From: Anaerolineae bacterium
GTDB lineage: Bacteria > Chloroflexota > Anaerolineae > Epilineales > JAHCIE01
NCBI GenBank assembly: GCA_039810085.1
Contig: JBDHWG010000009.1
Location: forward strand, 12,609 to 76,608
Direction: 5' to 3'
DNA: 64,000 nt
The translations under genes and the position numbers were made by a program. The notes beneath the pieces are model-generated. The model ran no database searches. It was not told the origin of the DNA and saw only the letters and a list, made by a program, of their open reading frames with translations. Position 1 is the stretch's first letter. Every line of letters starts with the position of its first letter. Positions 25,845 through 52,634 of this stretch are shown piece after piece.

Positions 25845-28640
25845 CTAACGTGTTACGTCCAGCGGACCTAGAAATACCTGGTCACCTGGAACAGCCGCGC
25901 CGTCCACCCTCACCGGCAGCCGCTCGCCCGTCGCCGCATCGTACAGACCGACTTCGATCCGGTATTGCCCCGGCGCAGCATTGCGATCCAGCGGGATGAC
26001 GTAGCGGTCGGCGATGTATTCGCCTGGCCGCCAACCTGTCGTCGGGCGGCTCCCCTCGACGGGAATGGTGTCAAGCTGGCCGACGATTTTCCCGTCTGGC
26101 CCGACGACGTGGGTAAACACCTTGAGGCTCTTGTCGAGCCGCCCCTGCGGATGCCAGTACAACGTTAGATCGACAGTGCTACCCGGCTTCACGCTCGGCT
26201 GTGCGATGTCGTAGCCGGCCAGCGTCACCCGATCCCCCAACGTCGCACTCAACGGGTGGCCGATGGGCGGCGGCTGTAGATTGACGGCCACCGGGCGCAC
26301 CGTCAGCCGCCCGATCTCCGCCGCTTCACCCTGGGGCTGACCATCCCCGCCAACAAGCGACACTACAACGGCATAGTCGCCGCCGGGCGTGTCTGCGTCA
26401 ACAAGGTAGTTATACTGGCCGAGCACCGTCTGGCCGGATTCCGAGGTCAGTGCGTATGTCTGGCTGCTGATGCTCGTGCCATCTGCGCCCACCAATGCAA
26501 TTTGCGCGTTGGCGTTGGGCTGCTTCACCTGCCAGCCCAATTCAAGGTGGACACTGTCGCCCGCGTCAACCGACGTTCGCTCCTGCCCCGCGCCGATGAG
26601 TCGCGCTGCGCCGAGGTCCTTGTCCAGGGGCCGCGACAGCTTGAGCGCGTCGGCCGACGGCGGACGGGCGGGCGCCATCACATTCAGTTCGGCAATCTTG
26701 TACTCTGTGCCGACCGGATTGCCCGACTCGTTCAGAATGTTCAGCCGCTTGAGGTCCGGGCTGTAGACGCCGACGACCACGGAGTAGCGGCCGGCCGGCG
26801 TGCCGGGGCGCACGTAGAGCCGCATCCTGTCGCTGTTCAGCTCGTTCGCCATCCAGCTTGCCGTCTGCTTGCGCACCGAGTTGGTCAACGCGCCGTCGCC
26901 CTGCCCCCAGACATTCCCCTCCGCATCGACCAGGTGGATGAAGGCAAGGTAGTTCTGGTCCAGGGGTGAGCGGTCGGGGTCAGCAGGGGCGGGCGCGCGC
27001 ACGCCGAAGCGCAGCCCCACGTCCAGGTCGCCGCCGCTGGGCACGGCGTCCGTCGACAGGCTGCCGCTGAACAGGGTGAGCTTATTGTCGAAGTTCAACT
27101 CCGGCCCCAGCGGCGGCGCATCTTTGCGGCGGTAGATTTGCAGCAGTTGCGGCCCGCGTCGGAAGACGCCCAGCGGCTTGAAGTTCTGGTCGATGTACGC
27201 CTGGAACTCCTTGAGGTCGCGCAGGAAACGCAGCTTCCCGAACTCCGACTGGTCCACCACGACGGCCCGCGCCCCGTCCGCCTCCATCTCCTGGACAAGC
27301 CTTGCGCCGGTGGTCTGCCCACTCGACGCCGCGCCCTGGGAGAGCGACGCCGCCGCATAGCCCGCCGGACGCTGCGCGAAGTAGTTCAGCCCCGCGTAAT
27401 CTGAGAGGAAGGTCGCGTCTGGCCCAACCTCGTACTTGAGGAACTCTGCCACGCGCCACGTTCCGTCCTCGCTGTAGCTCGCCACAACGTTGTCGGCGAC
27501 GCCCCACGGCAAGATGATGGCAGCGACGATGGCAGGCAGCAGAAAGCCGCGCTTCGTCCAGGCGAGCATCGGCTCCAGGCTCATGGCGAATAGCCCGACG
27601 AGCGCCGGCACGAGGTAGACCAGGTGACGCGACCATAGTTCCCGCGACAGAAAGATGAACGCGATCAGGCTTGGCAGCTGCCACGCCAGGAGCGTTCGCC
27701 GCCCGCCCTGCCGCCACGTGACGATTGCCATGGGCAGCGCGAACACCAGGAGCGACGCGTACTGCGCCCCATACGTCCAGTAGAACTCGATGCCCTTGCG
27801 GAAGACTTCCCAGCGCGAGAGCTGGCTGCCCTGCATAAGCTGGTGGCCGAAGATGGCCGTCCATGTCTCCGGTATCAGCAGGATCAGCAAGCCCATGACG
27901 CCGCCCGCTAACATTGCGGCGGGCAGCCCAATCGCAAGCGTGTCGTAGATAGCGCCTTTGAGCGTCCAGGTCGGGCGCCCGCGCCAGGCCTTCGGCCACA
28001 GGAGGTAGAGGATGACACCTCCCAGGGCCAGCACGCCGAACAGCTTCGTCAAGATAGCGAGGCCGAACAGCAGGCCGGAGAACACCAGCCAGCGGCGCGA
28101 CTTCCGCTCCTCGGCGATGACGAAGACCCACAACCCCATTGCGATGAAGAAGAGCATGTAGTCTTCGGGGCGATACACCCGGGCGACCTGGTAGACATCC
28201 GGGTGGGCAAGGAATGCGGCCAGCGCGGCCAGCGCCAGCGCCGGACTCATCAGGCGGCGGAAGACGCGATAGAAGCCCCAGCCCGCGCCGCCAATGAGCA
28301 GGGCGCTCAGAATGCGTAGCGGCGCCGGTGTCGGCCCAAAGATGTGCTCCACCAACCCGCCGATGCCGAGAAACAGGGGAAGCTGAGGCGTCAGCAGGTC
28401 GCGGTACGGCAGCTCACCCAGGCTGACGCGCCAGGCCTGGTACAGGTACAGCCCTTCGTCATCGACGATGAACCAGCCCATCATGTTGTACAGGATGGCG
28501 GCGACCGCGACAAGGATGATGACCAGCGCAGCGATATCGGCGTGGTCGATGACGAACGCCCACACGCGGCTCCAGGAGAGCGCGCCGAGAGTTGGGCGCG
28601 AGGAGCGAGAGATTGATTCGGTCCGCGACTCAGTACTCAT
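25845..28640 (-). CDS. GT-C fold membrane glycosyltransferase (PMT_2/ArnT-like) with three tandem C-terminal beta-domain repeats (paralog 1)
   Basis: N-term TM1 + DDEGLY motif, multiple TM helices; C-term repeats ...LTLYWHPQG...VFTHVVGPDG...GQYRIEVGLYDAATGERLP; start ATG 28640 chosen (longer ORF would overlap upstream gene). Confidence 0.75.
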   Translation of the reverse strand: MSTESRTESISRSSRPTLGALSWSRVWAFVIDHADIAALVIILVAVAAILYNMMGWFIVDDEGLYLYQAWRVSLGELPYRDLLTPQLPLFLGIGGLVEHIFGPTPAPLRILSALLIGGAGWGFYRVFRRLMSPALALAALAAFLAHPDVYQVARVYRPEDYMLFFIAMGLWVFVIAEERKSRRWLVFSGLLFGLAILTKLFGVLALGGVILYLLWPKAWRGRPTWTLKGAIYDTLAIGLPAAMLAGGVMGLLILLIPETWTAIFGHQLMQGSQLSRWEVFRKGIEFYWTYGAQYASLLVFALPMAIVTWRQGGRRTLLAWQLPSLIAFIFLSRELWSRHLVYLVPALVGLFAMSLEPMLAWTKRGFLLPAIVAAIILPWGVADNVVASYSEDGTWRVAEFLKYEVGPDATFLSDYAGLNYFAQRPAGYAAASLSQGAASSGQTTGARLVQEMEADGARAVVVDQSEFGKLRFLRDLKEFQAYIDQNFKPLGVFRRGPQLLQIYRRKDAPPLGPELNFDNKLTLFSGSLSTDAVPSGGDLDVGLRFGVRAPAPADPDRSPLDQNYLAFIHLVDAEGNVWGQGDGALTNSVRKQTASWMANELNSDRMRLYVRPGTPAGRYSVVVGVYSPDLKRLNILNESGNPVGTEYKIAELNVMAPARPPSADALKLSRPLDKDLGAARLIGAGQERTSVDAGDSVHLELGWQVKQPNANAQIALVGADGTSISSQTYALTSESGQTVLGQYNYLVDADTPGGDYAVVVSLVGGDGQPQGEAAEIGRLTVRPVAVNLQPPPIGHPLSATLGDRVTLAGYDIAQPSVKPGSTVDLTLYWHPQGRLDKSLKVFTHVVGPDGKIVGQLDTIPVEGSRPTTGWRPGEYIADRYVIPLDRNAAPGQYRIEVGLYDAATGERLPVRVDGAAVPGDQVFLGPLDVTR

Positions 28641-28666
28641 TCGATAAAGACAACGCTTCTGCTCTC

Positions 28667-28703
28667 CAAGACCTGACAGGTTTTGGAAACCTGTCAGGTC
28701 TTG
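28667..28703. repeat. Perfect 37-bp palindrome CAAGACCTGACAGGTTTTGGAAACCTGTCAGGTCTTG in the 68-bp intergenic gap between two GT-C genes
   Basis: 17-bp arms read directly; core shared with 39372-39400. Confidence 0.5.
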
Positions 28704-28708
28704 CTTGC

Positions 28709-31700
28709 CTACTGAACATCCACATCCAGCAGCAGGCGATTGTCCGGCTGCGCTGCGCCCGACGTGTCCCGTATGGGAAGCCGCGCCCCAGCCGCGTCGT
28801 ACCACCCAACCGCGATTTGATACTTACCTGGCGCTGTGCCAGGCGGAACAGTGAGGGTGTAGGGGTCCACGACAACCTCGCCCGCCTGCCACCTGCTTGT
28901 CGGATAGTGGCCGAGGCCCGGCGCGCGGTCGACCTGGCTGATAATCGAGCCATCCGGCGCGAGCATATGCACGAAGACCTTATAGTCCACCGGCGTGGGC
29001 GCGTCAGCCTTCCAGTAGAGCGTCACATCCAACGGCGCGCCCGGCGTTGCCTGCACCGCATCGTAGCCGAGCAGATGCGTTGACGCGCCGATAGTCGCGC
29101 CCGCTGCGTGTTGCGGCGGTCGGGGCGGCTGCGTCAGCGCCGTCGGCCCATCTACCCACACCCGGCCTAACACGACCGGCGACGGGAGTAGCGTCGTTCC
29201 GCTCTCGTCGACGACCTGCAACTCCACCGTCGCCGGACCACGCACTGCATCCGCCGCGACCTTGGCATGGCGAATGCCGTTGAAGACGTCGCCCGGCTGC
29301 CAGGCTTCAGGCGCGAGTTGTACCGGCAACAGGCTCTGCGGTGTCTGGGCTGCCGCGCCGCGCGCGTCGCGCACGCTCAGCACGACCCGCGCACCCTTCA
29401 CCGGCCCCGTTGCCTGCCACCACAGCGGCACGTCCACGGTGTCCCCCGGCTTGACGTCCCTATCGCCCTGGAAGCCATGCCCCAGTAAACGCAGGCCCAC
29501 CAGCGTCAGGTCCGCGTCCAGCCGCGCCGGCACGTCCACCTTCGTCGGCGCAGCCCCACGAGCGACGGATACCTTGCCTAAGGTCACGCTCTCCACCGGC
29601 CCGACCGCCTCGTTGTTGTTCGGCTTTTTGAGCCGGACGCGTAGTGTATACTCGCCTGGCGGCGTCGTGGCGGGCAGTGTCAAAGGCATCAGAGTCGTGT
29701 TAGTCGTACCGAGCGCCCAGGTGGTCGCCGGACGCAGTGCGCTATCCCGCAATGGCCGCTCGGCTGTCAACACAATGCCGCCCTCGGGGTCGAGCACATC
29801 GACGGCAGCAACCAGCGGCTCGCTCACCGGCGCGTTGACGCGCCAGGCCAGGCTCACGCCCTCTGGCTTACCAGCTTGCAACGCCGCGCCGCCTGCCCCC
29901 CAGCCGCCAAGGCTCAGCGGCCCCAGGGCCGCATTGGCAGGTTGGCTCGCAGCGGGCGCCGTGCGGAAGCGCCACACTTCCACGTCGGGGAACTTCCTCG
30001 GACCGGACTCAAGTATAGCCGCTTCCCTGAGCGCGTCCAGGGCTGCGCCTGGGTCGCCTTCTGGATAGCGCAGATACCACAGGCGTTGGACGGGCGGCAG
30101 CGCCGCCAATGCCCCCGCCACATCTGACGCCTGGAAGTGGCCGAAGACCTGCGCCACGGGCATCCCCGGCGGCGTCGAGCGCGCCGCCAGCGATGCTCCG
30201 TTGACCACGAAGCCATCGCCGGGTTGCGCCGCCTGCGTGATATACGCCAGGGGGGCGGTCGCCGTCGTGTTGGTGTAGATCCAGGCGTAGTCGATGCCGT
30301 CGATGCTGACCACCTTCAGCGGCTTCTCATCCGGGTTGTCATAGTAGCGGTTCACGAGGCTCTGGTTGCGCTGGCGCTGTACTTCGTTGAGATAAAGGAC
30401 GATGTAGTCCGTCTGGTAGGGGCGAAAGCCCGGCGCGCTGCGTGTCTCGCCGACGAACAGCGGCGCGAACTGCGATACACCCCGCGCCGCCACCTGGAGG
30501 TCGTTCGCATTCGGCAGGGTGTTCAGAAACGCCGCTGCCTGGTCGTAGCCCTCACCCCACCCCACCAGCAGCCAGCGCACGGCCGCCTGCCCGCCACCGA
30601 GGAGCGGGTTGTAGTACGTCAGGTAGTAGGGCGCGTGGGAGACGGCTATCGCCGCTTCCGTCACCAACACCAGCACGACCGCCACGACAGGCAACCACCG
30701 AGCCAGGCTCAGGCTGGCCCGCGCCCGCCGCGCCGCCACCCACCCGGCCAGCCACGTGACAGCGGCGGCAAGCCCCGCGCCCGCCACGAGGTCCAGCGGC
30801 GGGAACATCGGCAGGATGTAGCGGTCGAATTTCTTCGGGCTGAAAGAAATGAGGACGGCGAAGATGAGAGCGTAGCTCGCCAACCCGACAACGGCGTAGA
30901 CGAACGGGGAGGGTGACAGAACGAGCTGGCGCAGCGATCTCCGCGCCCGATACACTGCCGTGCCGACGCCAACGACCACGATGCCCAGCCCCAGCAGCGT
31001 CCAGGGAGAGGCGCGGAAGCCGTAGGCGACGATATACATGAACGGGCCGGGGTCGTCCACAACCTCTTCGTCGAACACGTTGCCGCCCGCGTGGGGGTTA
31101 CCGCCCTCGACCGCCGCTTTGTCCGCCACGCCGCGCACCGTTCCGACCGGGTTACTCCACGCCGACGGCCAGATGAGCAGGACGGCGATCAGCCCACCGA
31201 CGGCGAACAGCAGTGTCGCTCGAATCACCCCCCGCAGCCGCCGGTCGCGCCAGCCGAGGTAGACCAGCATGAGAACGGCCCACGGCCATAGGAACACCGC
31301 CGCCACCTTCTGCACCAGGGCCGCGCCCGCGAGGGCTCCCGCTGCGATGAGCCAGCGCCACGAAGATTCCCCACCCTCGCTCAGATAGGACAGAAACGCC
31401 GAGGCGCTGAGGCGCTCAGAAGAAACGTTTTGATGTTCTTCCTCTGCGTCTCTGCGTCTCTGCGTTTCTATCCTCTTAGCGTCCTCGACTTGTGGGCGAG
31501 TCGTCAGCAGCGTGAGGACGCTCAGCACGAGCAGGCTGCTGAGCGTCGCGTCGAGGTGGAACACGCGACTGTGCGCCATCACGAACGGATCAAAGGCCAG
31601 CAGCGCCAGTCCCAACACCGCCGCGAGCGCGCCGAGCAGCCGCCGCGCCAGCCAGTAGATGGGGATGAGCAGGAGCCAGTTGAACAGGGCGGGCGCGAAG

Positions 31701-32038: not shown

Positions 32039-34731
32039 GGCTTCACCGTAATGTGGCCCAGGACAGCGTGGTCGCCCTCGGTATCCGCGCCCTGAGCAAG
32101 CAGGCGCTGGAGCGTTTTGGCATCGTAGAGACCGACGCGCAAGGGGTAGCTGCCCGGCAGCGTGGACGGGTCAATCGAGATACTGCGCGACTCGATAATC
32201 GTCTCGCCCGGCTGCCACTGTGACGTGGGGCTGGCGCCGGATGCGGGCCAGCTGTCACTCTGGCCGTGAATAATGTCGTCCTCGACGTGGGCAAAAACAC
32301 TCAGGTCTGCCCCCACTTTATCCGTTGGCTGCCAGAAGAGCGTCAGGCCGAACGGCTCACCGGCTTTCACAATCGACGAGGTCAGCTCATAGCCCAACAA
32401 CCGCACCGAGCCGAGCATGGCGTCTGTGCGCATGGCGGGCGGCGCTTCCGCGAGCGCCTGGCCGATGGGGAAGGTCGGGCCGAGATATGGGTCGAAGCGC
32501 GCAGCATCCGCCAGGGTGTAGTAGCGCGGGGCAGCCACCGGGTCCCGGCTGTAGATGCGCAGCTTGGGCGCGCCGTCGGCATCCACGTCCGCCAACAGGT
32601 GATACTCCTTCTCGATGCGGTTGAGCGGAATTTTCACCGCGTCCTGCACATCCTGGGCAACGATGTAGTAGCGCGGGTTGGCGGCGGAGCGCACCGCTCC
32701 GCGCGTGTACCAGCCCGTGACCAGCGGCTCCTCGTTGCTGTCGTAGTCGCCCTGGAGCGTGCCGTCGGCGAAAAGCGAGCCGACGATGCTCCAGCCCGCC
32801 TGGTACGGGAAGCCGAAGTAGCCGCTACTCGGGGGACGATCACCATAGACGGCGGGGTACAACGGGCTGCGCGCCGCGGGATAGATGCGTTTATACTCTG
32901 GGCTGTGGCTCACGAACGCTATCCAGATGTAGCCGCCGAGCAACAAAACGAGTAGCCCGCCGACAGCCATGAGGGCAAAGCGCGCCGAGCGCCCGAATCG
33001 CGCCTGGACACCTTGCGCCAGTGCCGCCACGCCAAGGCCCGCGAGAAGCGCCGCGCCGGGCATCATGGTGTAGAAATGGGTGGTCGGCTTCTGCGTCAAG
33101 AAGCTCGCCACCAGGAACGGCCCCAGGAACCACAGGAGTGTCGCCTTCACGCCGTCGTCGAGGCGCGGCGCCAGCGCCCACAGCAAGAGCGGCAGAAAGA
33201 GAAATAGCGAGAGGTTGTACTTGCCAACGCGCAACGCTTCCGGCGCGGCGGCAGCGACCGCCAGGGCCAGCACAGGCCAGGCCAGGGCAAGCCACCGCCC
33301 GTGGCGGAAGCCACGCCAGCCGAGCCAGGCAAACACCGCGACGAGCGCCACGGCGAGCAGGACAATGTACCACGTCGAGTTGTAGAATGTCGCGCGCAGG
33401 AAGTAGTCGGCCAGCTTGTTATACAGCGGCCCACCAGCCGCCGCCGCATTGCCGACGCCGACGCGGCGGTTGATGATATAGTCAACTGTCTCACGGAAGT
33501 GGGGGTGCAGCGCGAACGGCGCGTAGAAGAAGGCCGCAATGGCCGCACATACCGCCGTCGGCGCCATCAGCCCACGCAGCCCACCCCGCCGCCACAGCAG
33601 GTACGCCACCGGCGGGATGGCGAAGACGGCCTCGTAGTGGCCCAGGCTCCCCGCCGCGACGAGCGCCCCTGCGACGACAGCCCACCGCATTCGCCCGCCC
33701 TGGTAGTAGCGCCACGCCGCCCATACCGCGACAATCGATGTGAGCGCGACGATGCTCTGGTACTGCACGATGCGGCCAAACGCCACAAAGTAGCCATCCA
33801 GCGCCAGGATCAGCGCAGCGACCAGCCCCTCACCCCCTAGCCCCCTCTCCCAAAATGGGAGAGGGGGAACAAGAGGGGCGTTCTGGCTCCCCTTCCCCGC
33901 TTGTGGGGGAAGGGGCTGCAAGAGCATGTCATCGCGAGCAGAGCGAAGCGATCCCTCACCGGGAGATTGCTTCGCTGACGCTCGCAATGACACATCAGGG
34001 CCTGACGAGAACAGCCGCCAGCCGAGCGCGCCGATGCCAAATACAGCGGCGACGTTCATCAGGGCGAAGGGCAACCGCGCCGAGGACTCGTCGATGCCAT
34101 CCGTCGCCGCCCAGACGAGCGCCGGCATGAGCACCTCGCCCGGCGCTTTCTTGTGGAAGAACAGGATTTCGCTGCGTCCCTGCCCCAACCCCGCCGCCAT
34201 CAGCATGGCGCGCGCCTCGTCGCCCTGGAACTCGGAGTAGCTCAGGAACGTCAGGCGGAAGACCAGGGCCAGGGCGACCGGGACCGCCAGCCACCACAGA
34301 GCGCGCACGCGAACAATTGCCGGACGCGCGGCGGTCGTTCCGAGGGCCAGCCAGCCCGCCAGAACGAGCAGCGCGCCGTCGAAAGCAAGTAGCACCGGGG
34401 CGCGGGTCATGGGCGTCGGCAGGTAAGCGACCGCGAGGCTCAAGACCAGAGCGCCCGCTACCGCTAGCGCCGCATCGAGGGCGAGGCGCTCCGGCCACGC
34501 GACGCTTTCGCCAGCCATCAACCGCTCGGCGACAAGCACACCGGGCAGAGCAAACAGAACGATGGCAGCCGTAGCGCGGACGAACAAGGGAACGGGGAGG
34601 AAGAGGAGGAGGTTCGCAACCAGCGCGACAGCAAGCGCAACCAGGGCAAACCATGCCCAAGGCCGCGCGGCGAGGCGTGTCGCGGGAGAAGCGGGGCCGG
34701 CGCCGGCCATCGGGAGACCCGAATCGGCCAT
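32035..34731 (-). CDS. GT-C fold membrane glycosyltransferase (paralog 3) carrying an approximately 57-aa low-complexity in-frame insertion
   Basis: 898 aa; GDE motif, TM-rich N-half, C-term LGYELTSSIVKAGEPFGLTLFWQP...VFAHVEDD...GSYPLRVGLYD repeat. Confidence 0.75.
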   Translation of the reverse strand: MADSGLPMAGAGPASPATRLAARPWAWFALVALAVALVANLLLFLPVPLFVRATAAIVLFALPGVLVAERLMAGESVAWPERLALDAALAVAGALVLSLAVAYLPTPMTRAPVLLAFDGALLVLAGWLALGTTAARPAIVRVRALWWLAVPVALALVFRLTFLSYSEFQGDEARAMLMAAGLGQGRSEILFFHKKAPGEVLMPALVWAATDGIDESSARLPFALMNVAAVFGIGALGWRLFSSGPDVSLRASAKQSPGEGSLRSARDDMLLQPLPPQAGKGSQNAPLVPPLPFWERGLGGEGLVAALILALDGYFVAFGRIVQYQSIVALTSIVAVWAAWRYYQGGRMRWAVVAGALVAAGSLGHYEAVFAIPPVAYLLWRRGGLRGLMAPTAVCAAIAAFFYAPFALHPHFRETVDYIINRRVGVGNAAAAGGPLYNKLADYFLRATFYNSTWYIVLLAVALVAVFAWLGWRGFRHGRWLALAWPVLALAVAAAAPEALRVGKYNLSLFLFLPLLLWALAPRLDDGVKATLLWFLGPFLVASFLTQKPTTHFYTMMPGAALLAGLGVAALAQGVQARFGRSARFALMAVGGLLVLLLGGYIWIAFVSHSPEYKRIYPAARSPLYPAVYGDRPPSSGYFGFPYQAGWSIVGSLFADGTLQGDYDSNEEPLVTGWYTRGAVRSAANPRYYIVAQDVQDAVKIPLNRIEKEYHLLADVDADGAPKLRIYSRDPVAAPRYYTLADAARFDPYLGPTFPIGQALAEAPPAMRTDAMLGSVRLLGYELTSSIVKAGEPFGLTLFWQPTDKVGADLSVFAHVEDDIIHGQSDSWPASGASPTSQWQPGETIIESRSISIDPSTLPGSYPLRVGLYDAKTLQRLLAQGADTEGDHAVLGHITVKP
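33826..33995. repeat. Composite palindromic element inside GT-C paralog 3 CDS: G-rich hairpins (33841-33867, 33889-33915) plus a 64-bp imperfect palindrome (33928-33991)
   Basis: CCCCCTCTCCCA-AAA-TGGGAGAGGGGG; CCCCTTCCCC-GCTTGT-GGGGGAAGGGG; GTCATCGCGAGC...GCTCGCAATGAC also seen at 50548-50610 and 59213-59249. Confidence 0.5.
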
Positions 34732-34735
34732 CGCG

Positions 34736-39878: not shown

Positions 39879-40018
39879 GATGTTCCGAAATCGCCAATTA
39901 GGGCAGGATTTTGACTTCGCGCCACGAGAACTCTACAATAGCCTGTCTTTTCCGCGAGCCACGCCTATGCAACCCGTTCAGCCCAGTTACACGCACACCC
40001 CGCGCCGGCAGCCCCAAT

Positions 40019-42858: not shown

Positions 42859-44863
42859 TCATTTTAGTAGCATCTCCGGTGTCACCTGGACTTTGCCCAG
42901 CGACACGCTCTCGCCCAACGGTCTGCCATCCGGCCCACTCACCGCCAGGTTGTGCTGCTCGCGCGCGTCCCACATGCGCACCTGCACGTCATACCCGCCA
43001 GGCGCCAGGTCTTTCGGGAGGTCGAGGACGGTCACACCGCGCACGGGCACACCGACGGGAAAGGCGGCGGTCGCCAGCCAGGCCGTGCTCGGCGCCTGGT
43101 TGTGTGTCGCCACAACGCGGCCCGAGGCATCCACCAGGTTGACGGTAACGGTGTAGTCTCGGTCGAGCGTCTGCTCAGCCCGCCAGTAGAAGATCCAGCG
43201 CAGCGCGCCCGGCTCGTCGCCGAACGGATCGACGCCGGTGAGCGTGAGCCGGTCGGCGTATGTCGCGCCCACTGGCTGCTGCGGCGTCGGGATGGCGACG
43301 ACGGGCGACCAGTCCTTGATGTTGAAGCGCATCAGGGTGTAGCCCGGTATCTGGGTGCGGATGAACGGCTCCCCCTCGCTGCGCCGGGACAGCTCAGCCA
43401 GCACCATCCCCGTGGGATCGGCAAACTCGTGGTGCCACAGGATGACCCAGACGCGCCCGGGGTGACGCGCCAGGAGATCGTTCAGCACACGCGCGCCGTT
43501 CTCGAAGTCGTAGCCAACGTGGATGCCCCACTGGGGCGTCGTGCCCTTGTAGTAATAGTTGAAGGCATACGGCGCATCTTCGACCAGCACGATGGCGTCA
43601 TCGTCGGCGCGGGCGCGGTCCATGAGGTACTGCGCCATCCGACGCGCGTCCTCCTGCGGCGACCACGAGGTTTGCGCAGCGCGCACGGCCTCGCGTCCTG
43701 AGAAGGCGAGCGCTGCGACGAGAATGACAACGTAGGCCAGGCGAAAGACCTGCTGACGCCGCCACAGGGCCTCGAACGCGAGCATCACCAGCGCCACGTA
43801 GAGCGCCGGCGCAGCGACGATGGCATAGCGCGCCGCGAACTTGGGCGCAAGCGTTACGGCCACCCCTGTGAGAGCAATCGGAATCGCCGCCGCGAGGACG
43901 ACCAACAGCTCACGCCGCGCCAGGCTCTTGTCTCGCAGCCAGCGTCGAATCAGGAACAGCGCCGCGCCCACGACCGCGAGCCCCAGCAAGAGCAGCGCCA
44001 GACGTGTCGAACCGATGGCGAGGAAGCTGCCCAGGATGCGGCCAATGACGCCTAGCGGATCCAACTCCGCCGGGAAGAAGTCGGGGTGGGCGGCCAGCCG
44101 CGCCATCTGGGCTGCCGTAGGCGCAAGCCACGGGAGATAGGCGATGAACGCCAGGGATGCAGCCGCCAGCCAGCGCAGGAACACACGGCGTCCGGCTAGC
44201 GCCGCATAGATGAACAGGGCGGGCAGCAGAAGCGCGGTGAGGTAGAGCGTGTACAGCATCCCGGCCAGCGCCGCGCCATGCAACGCCCACGGCCACACGT
44301 CTATCCAGTTTCTGATACCCCTCTGCTCCCCCTCTCCCTTTGTGGGAGAGGGGGGTGGGGGGGGGGGTACTCCGCGTCGCCCGCAGCAGGGTTGCCACGG
44401 CTAGTAGACCCCACATCGCAGCCAGGCTGTACATGCGCGCTTCCTGCGACGTGTAGATGAGGAACGGCGATAGGGCGACCAGGAGCGCGGCGGGAACGGC
44501 CGCGAACAGCGCTGCGATGCTCGAGCGCGTGCGGCCCGCGTAGACTTCGGCCAGGGTGACGTAGGCGAGGGGAATCAGCAGAACGCCGGGCGCGAGGCTG
44601 ACCCAGCGCACGGCAAACTCGCTCTGGCCCGCGACAAGCATCCAGGCATGGAGGAGCAGATAGTACAGCGGGGGGTGCAGGTCCTCCCGCACCAGGGTGG
44701 TCATCATGGCGGGCAAGGGGCGGCCCGCGAAATTGACGCTCAACCCCTCGTCAAACCACAGGCTCGCATCGCCCAGGGACCAGACCCTAGCAGTGAAGGC
44801 GACAAGTGTCACCCCCAGCATCGCCAAGGATGCCCAGCGCAACGGGCCAAACGATTTCGTCAT
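42859..44863 (-). pseudogene. GT-C fold glycosyltransferase (paralog 5) interrupted by a single frameshift at a G11/C11 homopolymer; N-part 44368-44863, C-part 42859-44367
   Basis: ORF 43910-44863 has WFDEGLSVNFA GT-C N-terminus then loses frame at TPPPTPLS (poly-C); ORF 42859-44298 continues the TM-rich body in another frame. Confidence 0.6.
44350..44367. repeat. Homopolymeric tract G6-T-G11
   Basis: Read directly: GGGGGGTGGGGGGGGGGG; coincides with the frame switch between ORFs 43910-44863 and 42859-44298. Confidence 0.6.
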
Positions 44864-46044
44864 GTCACGCTCAGAACTTCTCGATACAGCGCCATGTGCT
44901 GCCGCGCGATATTCTCCCAGCGAAATTGCGCCGCGAGTTTCCGCGCGCCTTCACCCAGGCGAGCACGGCGCGCTGGATCCGCCAGCAGCGCTGCAATGGT
45001 GTCCGCCAGCGCCGCCGCATCCTCAGCTAGCGCGAGAGCCGCATCCACACCATCGGTCAGGCCAGGGAGCGGTCCAGGCGTCGGGTTCGTCGGGCGCGTC
45101 GCAATGATGGGCAGGCCGTGGGCCAGCGCCGCCATGAGTGTGCCGCGCTGGAGCGACACACCACCGCGATACGGTAGCACCGCGATATCGGCGGCCGTGA
45201 GCGCCGCTGAGACCTCGGCCTCCGGCAGAAAGTCGGTCCAGAGCATGGCGTCACCGACACTCAGATGGTCGGCCTGGGCGCGAACCTGCGCCAGAAAGGC
45301 GCGATTCGTCGGGTCGCTTGCCCCTACCTGGCCGCCCAGCATCAGCAGGCGTGCCGGCGTTCCCGCCGCGCGCAGCCGCGCCAGCGCATCCACCAGGATG
45401 TCGGCGCCCTTCGCGCGATTCACAAAACCGAAGTATACCAGGAGGGGAACGGCTGGGCTAATTCCGAGGCGTCCTCTGAACGCGACGCCGTCGGCTGGTG
45501 TGGCCGTCGGCGTGATGTTCGAGCCGATGGGGATGACGGCAAGGCGGCGGGCCACCGGGCGCAGCACGGCGGCATCCTCATTGTTGGTGGCGATGGTGAT
45601 GTCCGACCAGCGCGCCAGGGCGAGGGTCACCCAGTTGCGCACAGGGCCGGCTTTCGGGAACAGGTAGGGAATTCGCGTGTCGTGGTACGTGGTGACGACG
45701 GGGATGCGCTGGCGGCGCAGAAGCCAGGGCAGGGCGTTGGCGACCGGGTGCATCCCATATGCCGCCGTCTGGTACTGGATGTGGACGATGCCGGCCTTGG
45801 CCGCCGCGCCGCGCACCTGGGGCCACGCACGCCAGTTCCAGCGGCGTACAGTCCGAGAGACGGGCGGGTCGTGCGGGGCGTCAATCACAGTCTCCAACGA
45901 ACTGGAGCCGGACAGGGTCATCACTTGGCACGCCTGACCCGCCGCAATCAGCGCCCGCCCCAATTCACGCGTGTAGTCGCCCAGGCCGCCCTGGACCGGC
46001 GGGTACTCGCCCGCCACGAACAGCACCGTCGGTGGACGGATCAC
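44860..46044 (-). CDS. GT4 (GT1-like) family glycosyltransferase
   Basis: 394 aa from GTG 46044 (GTGA overlap with upstream GT2 stop); N-term VLFVAGEYPPVQGGLGDY; C-term EGLP-type motif region. Confidence 0.8.
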   Translation of the reverse strand: MIRPPTVLFVAGEYPPVQGGLGDYTRELGRALIAAGQACQVMTLSGSSSLETVIDAPHDPPVSRTVRRWNWRAWPQVRGAAAKAGIVHIQYQTAAYGMHPVANALPWLLRRQRIPVVTTYHDTRIPYLFPKAGPVRNWVTLALARWSDITIATNNEDAAVLRPVARRLAVIPIGSNITPTATPADGVAFRGRLGISPAVPLLVYFGFVNRAKGADILVDALARLRAAGTPARLLMLGGQVGASDPTNRAFLAQVRAQADHLSVGDAMLWTDFLPEAEVSAALTAADIAVLPYRGGVSLQRGTLMAALAHGLPIIATRPTNPTPGPLPGLTDGVDAALALAEDAAALADTIAALLADPARRARLGEGARKLAAQFRWENIARQHMALYREVLSVT

Positions 46045-47057
46045 GAACGCAGCCTCGACCGGAGCACCTGGGCGTAGGCGCGCATCCGTTCCCGGCGCAT
46101 CGCCCGCTTGTGGCCGAGGAGCCACTTGGCGCCCTCCTCCACCATCTGCCACACGTAGGTGGCAAGGAGGAACAGCCGCAACGTTTCGGCCATGCCCGGC
46201 CCATGCCACTTGCGATAGTAGCGCACCTTGCTCGTCTGAAAGTAGATGTGCCGCTGTGCGACGACCTGCTCAGTGCTGCGACCCTCGTAGTGTATGACTT
46301 CGGCTGTGGGTAGGTAGACGACGCGCCAGCCCGCCTGCTTGAGACGCCTACCCCAATCGACCTCTTCCGAGTACATGAAAAAGCCTTCGTCCAGCAGCCC
46401 CACATCGGTGAGCGCTGCACCGCGCACGAGCATGCACGCGCCAGTGAGCCAGTCCACGTCCTGGACGATATCGTCGGAACGGTCCGCGACGTAGAAACGG
46501 CGCAGCGACGGCTGGTTCGGCCACCACTGCTGGAAGAGGGTGCTTTCGAGAAAGGCGGTCTGTCGAGTCGGGAAGCGCCGCCGCGCGGGCTGAATGCTAC
46601 CATCGGCATAGCGCAGGCGCGGTCCAAGCAGCCCGACATCCGGGTGCGCCGCCATGTAGGCGAGCATGGTCCCCAGCGCGTCGCCGACAATCTCCGTGTC
46701 GGGGTTGAGCAGCATGACATACGGGGGCGTCGAAGCCGCGATAGCAGTGTGCGCACTACTGATGTCGGCCGTGAATACATCAGTGCGAGGCGTCTCACCG
46801 CCCTGGGGACCAAAGCCCAGCGCGCGCAGCGCCAGGTTGTTGCCGGCCGTAAAGCCCAGGTTTTGCTCGGCGCGAACCAGGTGAACCCAGGGAAACTCGA
46901 CACGCACCATGTCGGCGCTGCCGTCGGTCGATGCGTTGTCTACGACGATAACAGCCACTGCTGCCCGAGTCGCCGCGCGTGCGGCTTCCAGCGACCGCAG
47001 GCACTGCCGCAGCAGGTCACGCACATTCCAGTTGAGAACGATAATTGCGAGGTCCAC
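46041..47057 (-). CDS. GT2 family glycosyltransferase (WbbL/rhamnosyltransferase-like)
   Basis: IIVLNWN...VIVVDNASTDGS...DTE motifs. Confidence 0.8.
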   Translation of the reverse strand: MDLAIIVLNWNVRDLLRQCLRSLEAARAATRAAVAVIVVDNASTDGSADMVRVEFPWVHLVRAEQNLGFTAGNNLALRALGFGPQGGETPRTDVFTADISSAHTAIAASTPPYVMLLNPDTEIVGDALGTMLAYMAAHPDVGLLGPRLRYADGSIQPARRRFPTRQTAFLESTLFQQWWPNQPSLRRFYVADRSDDIVQDVDWLTGACMLVRGAALTDVGLLDEGFFMYSEEVDWGRRLKQAGWRVVYLPTAEVIHYEGRSTEQVVAQRHIYFQTSKVRYYRKWHGPGMAETLRLFLLATYVWQMVEEGAKWLLGHKRAMRRERMRAYAQVLRSRLRS

Positions 47058-47087: not shown

Positions 47088-48158
47088 CTACTCGTGGCGG
47101 GCCACGGTGTACGCGCCGATGTCTTCGAGCACGCGGCGCGCGGGCACATCGGGGAGAGAAGCGAGCGCAGCATTTGCACGCTCGACGAACTCGGCCGCGA
47201 CCGAGCGCGCCGCCTCGATGGCGGGCGACTCGCGCACAGCAGCGACGAGCGCATCGACCGCGGCAAGCCTGTCTGCGCCTGGCGCCGCATCGAAGTAACG
47301 GCGCAGGAAGGGCGACTCTGGTTCGGCCTCGGCGTAGAGCATCACCGGCAGTGTCACGATGCCCTCGCGGAGGTCGCCGCCGACTGGCTTGCCGACCTGA
47401 GCCTGCGAGCCGGTGAAATCCAGGATGTCGTCGATAATCTGGAACGCCATGCCCAGGTTGTAGCCGTAGTCGTGCAAACGGGCGACGATATCCGGCGATG
47501 CGCCGCCCAGCTCGCCTGCCGCTTCCGCAGCGGTTGTAAACAGCGCCGCCGTCTTGCCGTAGATGCGCTCCAGGTACGCCTCACGGCTTGGCAGGCCGAC
47601 CGGACGATTGTAGAGCTGTTGCAATTCGCCGCCGACAATTGTCTTGAGGGTCTCGGCGAATAGACTAATCACCCGCGGGTTGTCGGTCTCGGCCACGTAG
47701 CGTGCGGCCCGCCCGAACATGTAGTCGCCAGCGAGGATTGTGGCGACCGGCGTCCAGACGGTGTTGAGGGTGGGGATGCCCCGGCGGAGAACAGCCTGGT
47801 CGATGAGGTCATCGTGGACGAGGGTCGCGGTATGCAGCATCTCAAGACCAGCCGCCAGGGACAGGGCGCGCTCGGTATCGCAGGGATAGATTTTGCACAC
47901 CAGGAGGGAGACGGCGGGACGCAGCCGCTTACCGCCTGCGCTCACTAGGTGAGTCAGGACTTCGGCGAGGGGCTGGTAGGGTACGTCGGACATGTTCCGC
48001 AGTTTGGCTTCGAGCCGCGTCATCTCGTCGCGGACGAGGCCGAGGTCCGGGTGGCCGACAACGCGCGTCGGTGCGGACGAGATGTTTACCCCGCCCCCAT
48101 CGTTCGCAGTCACACCATTATTATGTCCGCCGCCCATCATCGGATGTTGCTCGTTCAT
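47088..48158 (-). CDS. Polyprenyl diphosphate synthase (trans-IPPS, IspB/hepta-octaprenyl-like)
   Basis: First and second Asp-rich motifs LVHDDLID and QIIDDILDF. Confidence 0.85.
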   Translation of the reverse strand: MNEQHPMMGGGHNNGVTANDGGGVNISSAPTRVVGHPDLGLVRDEMTRLEAKLRNMSDVPYQPLAEVLTHLVSAGGKRLRPAVSLLVCKIYPCDTERALSLAAGLEMLHTATLVHDDLIDQAVLRRGIPTLNTVWTPVATILAGDYMFGRAARYVAETDNPRVISLFAETLKTIVGGELQQLYNRPVGLPSREAYLERIYGKTAALFTTAAEAAGELGGASPDIVARLHDYGYNLGMAFQIIDDILDFTGSQAQVGKPVGGDLREGIVTLPVMLYAEAEPESPFLRRYFDAAPGADRLAAVDALVAAVRESPAIEAARSVAAEFVERANAALASLPDVPARRVLEDIGAYTVARHE

Positions 48159-48244
48159 GCCCTATCGGTTTCCCCCGCAGCTACAATTCCACCCCGCATC
48201 CTATCCTCTGATGCAATGACCACGCCGCATATTTCGTCGCGGCG

Positions 48245-49057: not shown

Positions 49058-49084
49058 CGCGTCCGCCAGTGTCCACGGTTCCGG

Positions 49085-50536
49085 TCACGCCTCAGCCTTG
49101 ACGCCGGCCAGCGCCACGCCGGCCCGCAAGATATCCTGCACCTTGTCCTGGCGCGTCGTCTCGGTGTACACGCGCATCAACGGCTCGGTGCCGGAGAAGC
49201 GAATGAGCAGCCAGCCCGCTCCGTCCAACTCGTACTTGTAGCCATCCATGCGGTTGACACGGTTGACCTTGATTCCCGCAATCTCCTGGGGGTCGTCGCC
49301 ATCAAGCCTGGCCTTGATTTCCGCCCGCTGCGATGAGGGGAAGGTCATGTCAATGCGGTCGTAGTAGTGCGCTCCGACTTTGTCGAAGAGCATCTGCACG
49401 AGCTGCGACGGCGTCTTGCCTGTGCGCACCATGAAGTCCATGAGGTACAGGCCCGCCAGGATGCCGTCGCGCTCCGGCAGGCCACGGAAGGCGAAGCCGC
49501 CGCTCTCCTCGCCGCCCATCATCGCGTTCGTCTCGACCATCTTGGGGCCGACGTACTTAAAGCCAACGCCCGTCTCATACACCGGCACGTCATACAGCCG
49601 CCCTAGGCTCTCCAACATGGAAGTGGTCGAGAGTGTCTTCACAATCGGGCCGCGCTCGCCGCGATACTCCAGGAGATACAGGGCGAGCAGGCCGTAGACC
49701 TGCAACTGGTTGATGAAGACGCCGTGTTCGTCGCCCGCGCCGACCCGGTCGGCGTCGCCGTCGGTCATGATGGCGATATCGGCGCCTACCTCGCGCACCT
49801 TCGCCAGCGCCACGTCGATGTTGGGTGGAATTGGCTCCGGCCGCGACATCTCGGGAAACACCGGGTTGCGCACATCGTGCAGGAACGTCGGTTGCGTCTT
49901 GCCACCGACCAGCAGGCGCTTCCAGTAGGGCGCGCCCACGCCCCACATCGGCTCGATCACCACCTTCAGCCCGGCGTCGCGGATCTTCTCGACGTCCACG
50001 TTGGGGTAGATGCGGCGCTCGAAGTAGGCCGGCGCCGGGTCGAACAGCTCCACCAGGCCCTTCGCCTGGGCCTCCTTAAGCGGCATCCGCCGGGCGTTCG
50101 CCGCGTCGCCGATGCGCGCCTCGATCTCTTTCAAGGCATCAGGGGCAATCGCCGCGCCAGTCTCCGAGCGCACCTTGTAGCCACAGTCCCACGGCGGGTT
50201 GTGGCTGGCGGTGATGTTAATGGCCGCCGCCGCGCCCCGGTCGACGACCGAGAACGAGATCACCGGCGTCGGCGTGCCGCGGTCGGTCAGGTGCGCCTTG
50301 ATGCCGTTCCCCGCCATGACCTCGGCAGCAGCGGCGGCGAAGAACTCGGCCTCGAAACGGTTGTCGTAGCCGACGATGACACCGCCATCGGCCGCACCGA
50401 TCAGCTTGAGATAGTCTGCGAACGCCTGGCTGACGCGGCGAACGTTGTCGAATGTGTAATCCTCGGCGATGCGGGCGCGCCAGCCGTCCGTGCCGAAAAC
50501 AATATTACCGGCCATTCCGCTCTCCACTTGTGACAA
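49085..50536 (-). CDS. Phosphomannomutase/phosphoglucomutase (alpha-D-phosphohexomutase)
   Basis: Active-site [12 protein letters not shown]; four-domain length (483 aa). Confidence 0.85.
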
Positions 50537-50547
50537 AGTATATTACC

Positions 50548-50610
50548 GTCGTTGCGAGCGTCAGCGAAGCAACCTCCCGTCGCGGGATCGCGTCGCTCCG
50601 CTCGCGATGA
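50548..50610. repeat. 63-bp imperfect-palindromic repeat filling the PMM-gmd intergenic gap (copy 2 of family)
   Basis: Reverse complement GTCATCGCGAGCGGAGCGACGCGATCCC...GGGAGGTTGCTTCGCTGACGCTCGCAACGAC roughly 90% identical by eye to 33928-33991. Confidence 0.5.
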
Positions 50611-50611
50611 C

Positions 50612-51628
50612 TTAAACCCGGCTTGGGACGCGCTCGTTGCGCAGCGCCGTCAGGTCCGCCTCGACCATCATCTCCACCATCTGCTCGAACGAGACGTCCG
50701 GTGTCCACCCCAACTCCGTCCGCGCCTTGGTCGCGTCGCCAACCAGCAAATCCACCTCGGCCGGGCGCAAGTCCGACGGGTTGACGTAGACGTAGTCTTC
50801 CCAATTGAGGCCCACACACCCAAACGCCACCTCGCACAGCCGACGGACCGAGTGGGTCATCCCCGTCGCCACAACGTAGTCGCCGGGCGCGGGCTGCTGG
50901 AGCATCAGCCACATGGCGCGAACGTAGTCCGGCGCGAAGCCCCAGTCGCGCTGCGCCTCCAGGTTGCCCAGGGGCAGGCGGTCGACCAGGCCGAGCTTGA
51001 TCTTGGCGGCGTGATACGTCACCTTGTGGGTCACGAACTCAAGGCCACGGCGCGGCGACTCGTGGTTGAACAGAATGCCGGAGCAGGCGAACAGGTCGTA
51101 GCTCTCGCGGTAGTTGACCGTGATCCAGTGGCCGTAGACCTTTGCCACGCCGTAGGGACTGCGCGGGTAGAACGGCGTGCGCTCAGTCTGCGGCACCTCC
51201 TGCACCTTGCCGAACATCTCGGAGCTGGATGCCTGGTAAAACCGGATGTCCGGATCCACCATCCGAATCGCGTCGAGGACGCGCGTGACGCCAAGCGCGG
51301 TCGCCTCGCCGGTGAACACCGGCTGCACCCATGACGTTGGCACGAAGCTCTGCGCGGCAAGATTGTAGACCTCGTGGGGCCGCGTCTCACGGAGGATGGA
51401 CATGAGCGACACTTCGTCCATCAAGTCGCCCGGTACGAGGGTAATCTGATCCTGGATGTGGCGGATGCGGTCGAAGTTGACGGTGCTGGTGCGCCGCACC
51501 ATGCCGATGACCTCGTAGCCCTGCTCCAGGAGCAGTTCTGCCAGATACGAACCATCCTGGCCGGTGATTCCGGTAATCAATGCGCGCTTTCGCTGCGACA
51601 CGCTTGGTACTCCCTTCTTGTGCCCCAC
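50612..51628 (-). CDS. gmd: GDP-mannose 4,6-dehydratase
   Basis: [25 protein letters not shown]...[11 protein letters not shown]...[10 protein letters not shown] canonical GMD. Confidence 0.9.
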
Positions 51629-51668
51629 AACGGGACGAGCGCCGCCGAATGAATGCTTGGACCACGAC

Positions 51669-52634
51669 CTACACTTCTGGCCGCGTCACCTGACTCACTC
51701 GGCCACGCCAATAATCCAGGATATCCTGGAGACTCTGTTGGAATGGAATTTCAGGCTCCCACCCCGTGGCCGCTTTGAGACGACGCGGGTCACACACCGT
51801 CAGGGGCATGTCGACCGGGCGGAAGCGCGCCGGGTCAACCTCCACGCGAATCTCGGCATGGCTGAGAGCAATCAAACCTTCGAGCAAACTCCGCACACTG
51901 CGTGCAACCCCGCTGCCGACATTGTAGACCTCGCCAGGCTCGCCGTGGAGAGCGAGCAGCCAGTAGGCGCGCACAACGTCCCGCACGTCCGTGTAATCGC
52001 GTTCGGCCGCCAGGTTGCCCACCTTTACCACCGCGTCCCGCTCGCCCGCCTCGATCTGTGCAATCTGCTCCGCAAACGCAGCGGCAACGAAGTCTGGCCG
52101 CTGGCGCGGGCCGATATGCGGGAAGGGGCGCACACGAATGGCGGGAATGCCGTGGCTGAGGAAGTATTGCAGACCTAGCAAGTCCTGCGTCACCTTACTC
52201 ACGGCATACGGGCTTGTCGGGCGCAGCGGCGTGTCCTCGTCGATGGGCAGGTCCGCCGGGCGAACAGCGCCATACTCTTGCTCAGAGCCGACGACGATGA
52301 TACGCGCGCCTAGGCCCAGCTCGGCCATAACAGAGAGGAGGTTGACCTGGGTATGGATATTCGTCTCCAGGGTGTCCCACGGGTCACGCCAGGAGATGGC
52401 AACAGCCGCCTGAGCCGCCAGGTGGAAGATGACGTCCGGCATGGCGGCGCGCAAGATGGCGACCACCGCATCTCGGTCGCGGAGGTCGCCGTATAAGAGC
52501 TTCACATCGGCTGGTAGGGGCGCTAATGGCGCTTCGAGGACGACGCCCCACACCTGGCATTCTGTGTGGGATGTCAGATAATCCGCCAGATGGCTGCCGG
52601 CAAAGCCGGCGATACCGGTCACTAAAGCACGCAC
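51669..52634 (-). CDS. NAD-dependent epimerase/dehydratase, GDP-4-keto-6-deoxy-D-mannose reductase (Rmd)-like
   Basis: 321 aa from GTG 52634 (RBS AAGGGGG); [14 protein letters not shown], catalytic SPYAVSKV; adjacent to gmd. Confidence 0.7.

Follow-up and report, generated by a model that had tools for sequence, protein, structure and literature searches.

The three-component logic of extracytoplasmic glycosylation, which joins a polyprenyl-phosphate (Pren-P) sugar synthase, a flippase and an enzyme of the GT-C class of glycosyltransferases (GT-C), has been reviewed, and GT-Cs with acceptor-binding carbohydrate-binding modules (CBMs) have precedent in GT136 ORF12, EmbA/B/C and AftD (PMC11127046). 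We analyzed a locus of this type in 64,000 nucleotides (nt) of DNA, hereafter the window, from an uncultured Anaerolineae bacterium (Chloroflexota; assembly GCA_039810085.1, contig JBDHWG010000009.1, positions 12,609-76,608 of the forward strand). An earlier note on this DNA had described the interval at 25.8-52.7 kb as such a system multiplied sixfold. We find that the locus is a real envelope-glycosylation gene cluster, and a variant of a known system type rather than a new kind. Because one donor module serves five very divergent GT-Cs and a YfhO protein, there are not six copies of the three-component system. Each of the five GT-Cs ends in a domain that we call the tail. Our preferred interpretation, to which we assign a probability of roughly 0.6, is a decoration of an envelope glycan outside the cytoplasm that depends on a Pren-P-sugar, probably Pren-P-galacturonic acid (Pren-P-GalA), with the tails binding the acceptor.

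Among the closest described systems, Gtr and Arn (GtrB-GtrA-GtrC, ArnC-ArnE/F-ArnT and CsbB/GtcA/YfhO) share with this locus a GT2-family glycosyltransferase (GT2) that matches ArnC and has C-terminal transmembrane (TM) helices, as well as ArnT-fold GT-Cs, YfhO and tight linkage. However, their flippase is GtrA or a small multidrug resistance (SMR) protein, whereas the candidate here belongs to PF03706 and is MprF-flippase-like. They also lack the present arrangement of one donor module for five GT-Cs plus YfhO, in which the GT-Cs have one or three unclassified tails. Moreover, the host phylum here is considered to be free of lipopolysaccharide (LPS; PMC13319060).

In Citrobacter youngae O1/O2, GT136 is a GT-C whose C-terminal CBM binds the unmodified polysaccharide backbone, and decoration occurs after polymerization (Kelly et al. 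2024, PMC11127046). GDP-mannose (GDP-Man) and GDP-D-rhamnose (GDP-D-Rha) are the precursors of this backbone, by way of Gmd and Rmd, two enzymes that are also encoded here. By contrast, the Citrobacter system uses a pentofuranose donor derived from phosphoribosyl pyrophosphate (PRPP), a flippase of the MATE family, a single GT-C and Wzm/Wzt, the last of which is absent here. The mycobacterial arabinan enzymes (EmbA/B/C and AftA-D) exemplify many GT-Cs that share a single lipid-linked donor. CBMs are present in Emb and AftD, and the arabinan enzymes are among the fold matches of P7, one of our GT-Cs. However, their donor, decaprenyl-phospho-arabinose (DPA), comes from PRPP, the folds and positions of their CBMs differ, and there is no sequence relation to the tail described here.

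The Pgf system of Streptococcus mutans (PgfS-PgfM1-PgfE-PgfM2) likewise has a GT2, an epimerase, more than one GT-C and extracytoplasmic transfer, but its GT-Cs are of the YfhO type without beta-sandwich tails, PgfE acts on N-acetylhexosamines, and the acceptors are Ser/Thr-rich protein regions. In Rhizobium leguminosarum, Brown and co-workers are said to have described in 2012 the RgtE/RgtA-D system, with one ArnC-like Pren-P-GalA synthase that depends on a UDP-glucuronate (UDP-GlcA) 4-epimerase. It reportedly has several PMT_2-family GT-Cs, each with its own acceptor position on lipid A or the LPS core, and these enzymes are said to have no C-terminal beta-sandwich repeats. Acceptors of the lipid A and LPS core kind are absent here, and the epimerase alone points to a GalA donor. 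The present locus differs in its candidate flippase family, in having many GT-Cs for each donor module, and in a tail that is unclassified and very widespread.

Organization of the locus

The interval sits in the part of the window that has ~65% GC, and its open reading frames (ORFs) form an unbroken minus-strand array with the single exception of YfhO. In transcription order, the core consists of P7, the flippase-like gene, a short-chain dehydrogenase/reductase (SDR) gene, the GT2 gene, P3, P2 and P1, where the P numbers denote tail-bearing GT-Cs. Beyond YfhO, a second minus-strand set runs from a cytoplasmic GT2 (46041-47057) through a GT4 to P9. Rightward of it are genes for a trans-type polyprenyl diphosphate synthase, a TatD nuclease, a phosphohexomutase, Gmd and an Rmd-like reductase.

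From the flippase-like gene through P2 (37638 down to 28709), neighboring ORFs overlap or are separated by at most 4 nt; for example, P3 starts 4 nt past the GT2 stop. A gap of 188 nt separates P7 from the flippase-like gene downstream of it. By their spacing, and by their synteny in the three relatives L003, L083 and L084, the GT-C genes are genetically linked to the donor module, as in other three-component systems. On the right, the limit of the locus is set by a separate methionine-salvage and S-adenosylmethionine (SAM)-cycle array. This array is headed by a SAM riboswitch (58907-59047, minus strand, 85.8 bits), contains MtnA-like (IF-2B family), PfkB kinase, GNAT, AdoHcyase and MetK genes, and finishes with MetK at 53346.

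The gene identities, operon-like packing and synteny, the ArnT-like and beta-sandwich folds and the distribution of the tail domain are established by the tool results presented here. Every gene type that the earlier note had named was found in its place by ORF calls, translations, Pfam and NCBIfam. The core logic that it proposed, in which a Pren-P-sugar synthase and a candidate flippase go together with several GT-Cs that have candidate acceptor-binding tails, holds in light of the packing, the synteny, the P7 model and the tail fold.

A widespread, unclassified tail domain

We built a hidden Markov model (HMM) of the tail from the five terminal copies of ~130 amino acids (aa) and searched it against all stop-to-stop frames in the six-frame translation of the 64 kb. 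The HMM matches only the five PMT_2-type ORFs, and the terminal copies score independent E-values (i-E) of 1e-50 to 1e-58. This is far above chance, and the C-terminal repeat itself is real. With a broader profile, we found nine copies in total: three each in P1 and P2, and one each in P3, P7 and P9. Earlier, five or six proteins had been thought to carry one to four copies of a ~110-aa unit; there are five, with one or three copies but never four, and the unit is ~130 aa long. YfhO has no tail, as its best i-E is 36 with filters off and it is absent among the matches of the broader profile.

The canonical terminal copy of P1 (25848-26327, minus strand) scores 197.9 bits against our A1 profile. 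The two internal copies of P1 (26355-26978, minus strand) score 60.4 and 14.4 bits, the second being degenerate, and the three copies occupy aa 559-655, 652-763 and 774-931 of the protein. P2 has a module of three copies on the minus strand (28712-29953, comprising 29609-29953, 29207-29554 and 28712-29176; aa 696-810, 829-944 and 955-1109) with scores of 37.2, 18.9 and 163.8 bits. In BLASTP, the P1 and P2 modules align collinearly along 382 aa with 31.7% identity. The single terminal copies are at 32041-32427 in P3 (138.8 bits), 37845-38252 in P7 and 42877-43260 in P9 (136.7 bits), where the copy is degenerate.

The terminal copies of P1, P2, P3 and P7 share conserved residues, roughly L.LYW...F.H...D..P....PT..W...VG.YD...RL, which are near-invariant across 28 homologs. 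The H, D, PT and W residues are gone from the P9 copy and from most internal copies of P1 and P2, but are mostly retained in copy 1 of P1.

No Pfam or NCBIfam family matched the tail above sub-threshold noise, whether we searched the window proteins, 10 database homologs or 28 isolated domains, and a search of PDB sequences with the tail profile found nothing. The sub-threshold matches are scattered over Wzt_C, ML, MG2 and NPCBM_assoc. The best match to Wzt_C (PF14524) among tail homologs has an E-value of 0.0014 and 19 bits against a cut-off of 30.4 bits, and only one of the 28 isolated domains reaches Wzt_C at all, at an E-value of 0.11. The Pfam, NCBIfam and PDB-sequence profile searches thus reject, at the level of sequence, an identification of the tail with a known CBM, an outcome that the earlier note had allowed for.

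The terminal domain of P1 is modeled as a seven-strand beta-sandwich with a pLDDT of 95.8. When we compared this tail to the PDB with Foldseek, the carbohydrate-binding domains (CBDs) of the O-antigen protein Wzt came out on top (8dky, 6o14 and 2r5o), with E-values from 3.6e-5 and query-normalized TM-scores of 0.63-0.69. The Wzt CBD (PF14524; PDB 2r5o, 6o14/8dky and 5hno) is, like the tail, a beta-sandwich, and of similar size. However, it resides in the cytoplasm, where it is joined to an ABC ATPase, while the tail is extracytoplasmic and fused to a GT-C; there is no above-threshold sequence match between the two, and generic GH2 Ig-like domains score equally well. According to the model, the tail resembles Wzt CBDs and GH2 Ig-like domains at the fold level only. 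The tails are candidates for binding an acceptor glycan.

Five divergent GT-C enzymes

The earlier note had described PMT_2/ArnT-like N-terminal halves with a DE motif, and this is borne out. P1 (25845-28643, minus strand; 932 aa counted from Met55 of the listed ORF, with an ortholog of 931 aa in L084) is PMT_2/ArnT-like, scoring 62.7 bits for PMT_2 (PF13231, gathering cut-off 26.1 bits) and 25.0 bits for PMT in Pfam. The gathering score is also passed by P2 (28709-32038, minus strand; 1109 aa), which barely exceeds it with 26.9 bits, by P3 (32035-34731, minus strand; 898 aa; 32.8 bits) and by P7 (37827-39845, minus strand; 672 aa; 29.9 bits). The exception is the GT-C-like P9 (42859-44863, minus strand), which is split by a frameshift; a fragment of it scores 21.9 bits, the rejoined sequence 18.8 bits. 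In the translations, all five PMT_2-type proteins have a DE dipeptide ~8-14 residues past the first TM helix.

The full-length P7 protein, the one enzyme modeled at full length and thus the basis of our GT-C fold comparison, was modeled with 21 homologs at a pLDDT of 87.6. The model has ~13 membrane helices, an alpha/beta periplasmic domain and a beta-sandwich. Its best PDB match is ArnT (5f15 and 5ezm; E-value 7.8e-9, target-normalized TM-score 0.62), followed by STT3/PglB, AftA and EmbC. D67 and E68, the DE dipeptide of P7, are invariant in the 21 homologs and lie at the start of helix 66-79, directly after the TM helix formed by residues 28-56. Given the adjacent ArnC-like GT2, the GT-Cs presumably use a sugar donor linked to Pren-P.

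Pairwise BLASTP comparison of the five proteins detects similarity only in the C-terminal domain (24-43% identity), apart from a weak 23% match between P1 and P7 upstream of the tail; no other pair matches in the TM domain. A profile of the P7 family reaches into the TM region only for P3 (472 columns) when aligned with hhalign, and gives no alignment to YfhO. Because BLASTP similarity is confined to the tails, save for the weak match noted, we rejected recent paralogy of the five GT-Cs. The term "paralogous", used previously, holds at the family level but not for pairwise comparison of the TM domains, which essentially lack BLASTP matches. Better conservation of a shared tail than of the catalytic domains is expected if the tails recognize something common while the catalytic domains differ in task. 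That the tail is the only part with pairwise BLASTP similarity would fit a shared ligand and different catalytic specificities.

The P9 frameshift lies at a homopolymer run (44357-44367; G11 on the plus strand, C11 on the coding strand) beside a palindromic element (44328-44358). Both P9 frames match, at 81% identity each, an intact 666-aa ortholog in L084 (869-2869 of that locus), which has no homopolymer run. P9 could be a real pseudogene or subject to phase variation by strand slippage, or the homopolymer could have been misassembled.

Several small palindromes occur in these genes. A 33-nt perfect palindrome, AGACCTGACAGGTTTTGGAAACCTGTCAGGTCT, is found twice, in the intergenic gap between P2 and P1 (28669-28701) and inside P7 (39370-39400), where it is in frame and translates to LTGFQNLSGL, in a loop that is modeled with low confidence. 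The element CCCCCTCTCCC..GGGAGAGGGGG occurs inside P3 (33841-33871) and P9 (44328-44358). A palindromic element of ~64 nt occurs inside P3 (33928-33991) and in the intergenic spacers 50548-50611 and 59200-59250. The small palindromic insertions in P3 span 33841-33991. GT-C loops tolerate such elements, which are inserted there in frame.

The donor module

The GT2 of the core (34736-35728, minus strand; Glycos_transf_2, 129 bits) resembles ArnC, GtrB and PgfS. It matches the NCBIfam model of ArnC end to end (positions 8-313 of 316), as expected from the earlier note's GtrB/ArnC-like assignment, with 241 bits. Since the equivalog cut-off is 529 bits, the protein is not ArnC itself; the PgfS model scores 176 bits. 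Two C-terminal hydrophobic helices are seen in its sequence, and these features are those of a putative membrane-anchored Pren-P-monosaccharide synthase. The GT2 is 96% identical in L003.

Between the flippase-like gene and the GT2 gene, and overlapping the start of the latter by 8 nt, is the SDR gene (35721-36644, minus strand). Its product is probably a UDP-glucuronate 4-epimerase: its best PDB matches are the UDP-GlcA epimerase of B. cereus (6zl6, 241 bits) and MoeE5 (210 bits), compared to 173 bits for GalE. In the alignment, the protein keeps T-S-S (hasTSSvyg), Y-x3-K (spYgvtK) and the equivalent of Arg185 (ygprqRpdm). The T and S residues are reported, in a structure paper of 2020, to bind the carboxylate. 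Arg185 stabilizes the carboxylate of UDP-GalA (PMC12338863). Because the SDR is closest to two structurally characterized UDP-GlcA 4-epimerases and keeps their key residues, the donor would most likely be Pren-P-GalA, or else Pren-P-glucuronic acid (Pren-P-GlcA).

The flippase-like membrane protein (36646-37638, minus strand) belongs to PF03706/TIGR00374, with 154.7 bits for LPG_synthase_TM and 77.7 bits for TIGR00374. A small flippase of the GtrA, SMR or MATE type is not present in the locus, and this protein occupies that place. A flippase-like protein had been predicted earlier and is indeed there, although it is not of the GtrA or ArnE/F type. We compared 80 loci anchored on this type of GT2, and 14 of them (including L004, L005, L013, L016, L020 and L054) contain a PF03706 homolog, which is adjacent to the GT2 in several loci, other phyla included. 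This recurrent pairing supports a putative functional link between the two proteins.

Relatives and distribution

The locus in L003 (from the metagenome-assembled genome (MAG) STL-CHL22) is collinear with ours at ~78-84% DNA identity, and L083 and L084 are collinear as well. Gene order and orientation are kept in all three over the core (25.8-47 kb); the fetched relative loci end at the GT4 gene. An NCBI protein 100% identical to P7 is encoded on a contig of 203 kb, and other homologs are 77-83% identical, the two named ones being from Anaerolineae MAGs.

The number of GT-Cs is not constant. L084 has seven tail-bearing GT-C genes plus YfhO, including two tail-bearing PMT_2 genes (683 and 605 aa, at 2886-6761 of that locus) between the P9 ortholog and YfhO that are absent from the window. 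L003 has six tail-bearing genes, at least one of them extra, namely a 605-aa PMT_2 gene at 800-2617, where the fetched locus ends. Genomes with ~80% identity thus differ in their GT-C content, and more distant Anaerolineae loci have two or three tail-bearing genes. On a second contig of the STL-CHL22 genome (L085, GCA_046328505.1), a lone P7-like PMT_2 GT-C, 47% identical to P7, occurs beside a GH127 beta-L-arabinofuranosidase-like gene. Dispersed GT-C copies thus exist besides the array.

Four of the 80 GT2-anchored loci contain the tail, three of them from Anaerolineae and one from a MAG labeled Chlamydiae, while 76 do not. Much larger numbers emerged when we searched the tail profile against 1.84 billion cluster representatives (50% identity): 31,740 match at E-values up to 1e-3 and 9,051 at E-values up to 1e-30. 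A typical top match is ~1000 aa long and has a PMT_2 or PTPS_related part at its N-terminus and three copies of the tail at its C-terminus. All named top matches are from Chloroflexota and are labeled "glycosyltransferase family 39" or "ArnT family", and a pair of them are encoded side by side on the same contig. Searching the tail profile against a word-indexed protein set gave mostly short unnamed fragments and revealed no wider taxonomy. The arrangement is not unique, since relatives carry six or seven such genes and a GT-C with a tail is very common in metagenomes. Rather, the combination is a lineage-typical architecture that is unnamed but not rare. Among the papers searched, none combines GT-Cs with Chloroflexota.

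Proposed mechanism and alternatives

In the mechanism that we propose, the SDR would convert UDP-GlcA to UDP-GalA, the ArnC/GtrB-like GT2 would place the sugar on polyprenyl phosphate at the inner membrane face, and the PF03706 protein would flip the lipid-linked sugar to the outer face. There, the five ArnT-fold GT-Cs (one of them frameshifted) and YfhO may transfer the sugar to different positions of an envelope glycan. The one or three tails per enzyme would hold the acceptor polymer, while the divergent TM and catalytic domains would each set their own site or linkage. The cytoplasmic GT2-GT4 pair together with Gmd and Rmd might conceivably supply a backbone derived from GDP-Man and GDP-D-Rha, but this link is weak because no exporter is present here.

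Several observations weigh against this decoration of an envelope glycan. The sandwich fold of the tail is generic, in that GH2 Ig-like, MG2, ML and arrestin-like domains score similarly to Wzt, and no CBM family matches the tail by sequence. One of the five enzymes, P9, is both below the PMT_2 threshold and frameshifted. The candidate flippase belongs to the MprF-flippase family, and we know of no flippase activity for its stand-alone form. On the donor side, there is no UDP-glucose dehydrogenase gene in the 64-kb window, and a close ortholog of the SDR is found only in L003, L083 and L084, whereas the more distant Anaerolineae loci L004 and L005 have the flippase-GT2 pair without it. Given this restriction to close relatives, the donor sugar may differ between lineages. 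Finally, as there is a single Pren-P-sugar synthase and the GT-Cs are very divergent, some of them may draw on donors from pathways at other sites in the genome.

It seems unlikely to us that the same donor module instead serves protein O-glycosylation of the PMT or Pgf type, in which the GT-Cs would modify Ser/Thr-rich secreted or envelope proteins and the tails would bind the protein or its glycans. The N-terminal domains do match PMT/PMT_2 families and have a PMT-like DE motif, and the GT2 score for the PgfS model fits this possibility too. A candidate substrate is also encoded in the window, namely a secreted 607-aa protein (61564-63387, minus strand) with two long Thr/Pro-rich linkers. 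With its hydrophobic, signal-peptide-like N-terminus, globular parts and repetitive DNA, this protein is a plausible O-glycosylation substrate outside the locus. However, its gene is ~9 kb away from the locus, beyond the SAM-riboswitch operon, and Thr/Pro-rich linkers are common in secreted proteins of Chloroflexota. The report that the Pgf system glycosylates Ser/Thr-rich disordered regions extracellularly (PMC12041528) is another point in favor. By contrast, the best structural match of P7 is ArnT, with Pmt4 and Pmt1/2 ranking 20th or lower, the MIR or TPR substrate-binding domains are not present, and the closest full-coverage fold matches of the tail are the glycan-binding Wzt domains. We regard as quite improbable a role in polymer assembly, in which the GT-Cs would build and branch a homopolymer (e.g., galacturonan) on a primer from one lipid-linked donor, and multi-copy tails would give processivity. 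Loci of this lineage have one donor module and five to eight GT-Cs, which matches the pattern of DPA with AftA-D and EmbA-C, and Emb and AftD carry CBMs too (PMC11127046). EmbC, EmbA/B, AftA and AftD are among the structural matches of P7, and the collinear three-copy tails of P1 and P2 are presumably older than the divergence of these proteins. However, sequence does not separate a polymerizing from a decorating GT-C, and ArnT, the best match, transfers a single sugar. Moreover, GT-C content differs among close relatives, with two genes absent here, and such variation fits dispensable decorations more easily than an essential assembly line.

The genes might also form no single system, being either a chance neighborhood of envelope and housekeeping genes or a generic exopolysaccharide (EPS) operon; we consider this highly improbable. 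The right-hand third of the interval has no necessary link to the rest, as its polyprenyl synthase is of the trans type, TatD is present and the mutase is unassignable, and it extends beyond the synteny comparison because the relatives' loci end at GT4. However, the genes of the core (25.8-47 kb) lie close together and keep their synteny in three relatives, no further copy of the tail domain exists in the 64 kb, and among GT2-anchored loci the tail is restricted to the few mentioned above. The ORFs scanned between 20 and 64 kb include no initiating phosphoglycosyltransferase, Wzx/Wzy, Wzm/Wzt or PCP/OPX; the sole ABC pair among them is CcmA/CcmB, and a MurJ fragment is at the window end. With no such initiating enzyme, polymerase or exporter among these ORFs, a generic Wzx/Wzy- or ABC-dependent EPS or O-antigen operon is rejected. 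The generic, widely conserved EPS operon that the earlier note had considered is thus not what we find. A chance neighborhood is rejected for the core, but is possible for the right-hand genes.

Other genes of the interval and the window

The YfhO-family GT-C (39911-42820, plus strand; 969 aa) scores 76.8 bits for PF09586 against a cut-off of 28.5 bits. On the minus strand, the cytoplasmic GT4 (44860-46044; 394 aa) matches Glyco_trans_1_4, Glycos_transf_1 and Glyco_transf_4, and its stop overlaps the P9 start. Its ortholog in L084 also has 394 aa and is immediately upstream of the P9 ortholog. The cytoplasmic GT2 (46041-47057, minus strand; 338 aa) scores 62.5 bits for Glyco_tranf_2_3 and has no NCBIfam equivalog match. 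YfhO, GT4 and this GT2 are all present as had been claimed.

The polyprenyl synthase (47088-48158; polyprenyl_synt, PF00348) is closest to HepT and to solanesyl and octaprenyl (IspB-like) diphosphate synthases. We rejected a role for it as the synthase of the glycan carrier lipid (UppS), since it is of the trans type and resembles enzymes for quinone side chains rather than a cis-prenyltransferase. The predicted polyprenyl synthase is therefore there, but as a trans long-chain enzyme. The phosphohexomutase (49085-50536, minus strand) belongs to the PGM/PMM/GlmM superfamily and has four PGM_PMM domains. It had been called a phosphomannomutase; its best NCBIfam match is archaeal GlmM with 254 bits, under the 439-bit cut-off, and it misses all other cut-offs as well. 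By contrast, gmd and the rmd-like gene are confirmed: Gmd, a GDP-mannose 4,6-dehydratase (50612-51628, minus strand), exceeds the 415-bit equivalog cut-off of TIGR01472 with 439.3 bits, and the SDR encoded at 51669-52634 (minus strand) is an Rmd-like GDP-4-keto-6-deoxy-D-mannose reductase that matches the Rmd structures 2pk3 (266 bits) and 6x3b (197 bits). The right-hand part of what had been termed a supercluster thus contains the genes expected, but the polyprenyl synthase, TatD and the mutase are not demonstrably in the pathway, and the first two are probably bystanders.

At the other end of the window, positions 1-20000 have ~50% GC, compared to ~65% in the remainder. This region encodes an AAA_22 ATPase (861-1742), an N6/N4 DNA methylase (3063-4343), a McrBC-like protein (4359-5678), an AAA_5 protein (5680-7380), RadC (14291-14875), DUF2321 and several ORFs without a family match. 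The region has the look of a defence island gained by horizontal transfer.

Implications for the Chloroflexota envelope

The class of mechanism proposed here is well known, and the gain lies in scope and annotation, not in principle. The tail, for which the Pfam, NCBIfam and PDB sequence libraries that we searched have no match, is a sizeable unannotated family worth a domain definition. The outer envelope layers of Chloroflexota are thought to consist of polysaccharide or protein, without LPS (PMC13319060). For the question of their composition, loci of the type described here provide a concrete, testable gene set. We can tentatively go further, although this extension is doubtful: the tail might be a new CBM family, found so far only in Chloroflexota where a taxon is named, that tethers a battery of GT-Cs to the outer envelope polymer of the phylum. 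These GT-Cs would share a single Pren-P-uronic-acid donor, and surface variation might arise through gene gain and loss between relatives and through a homopolymer tract that switches one enzyme on and off. If this is true, loci like this one would assemble or diversify the outer envelope layer, and variation in the surface glycans of these bacteria would result.

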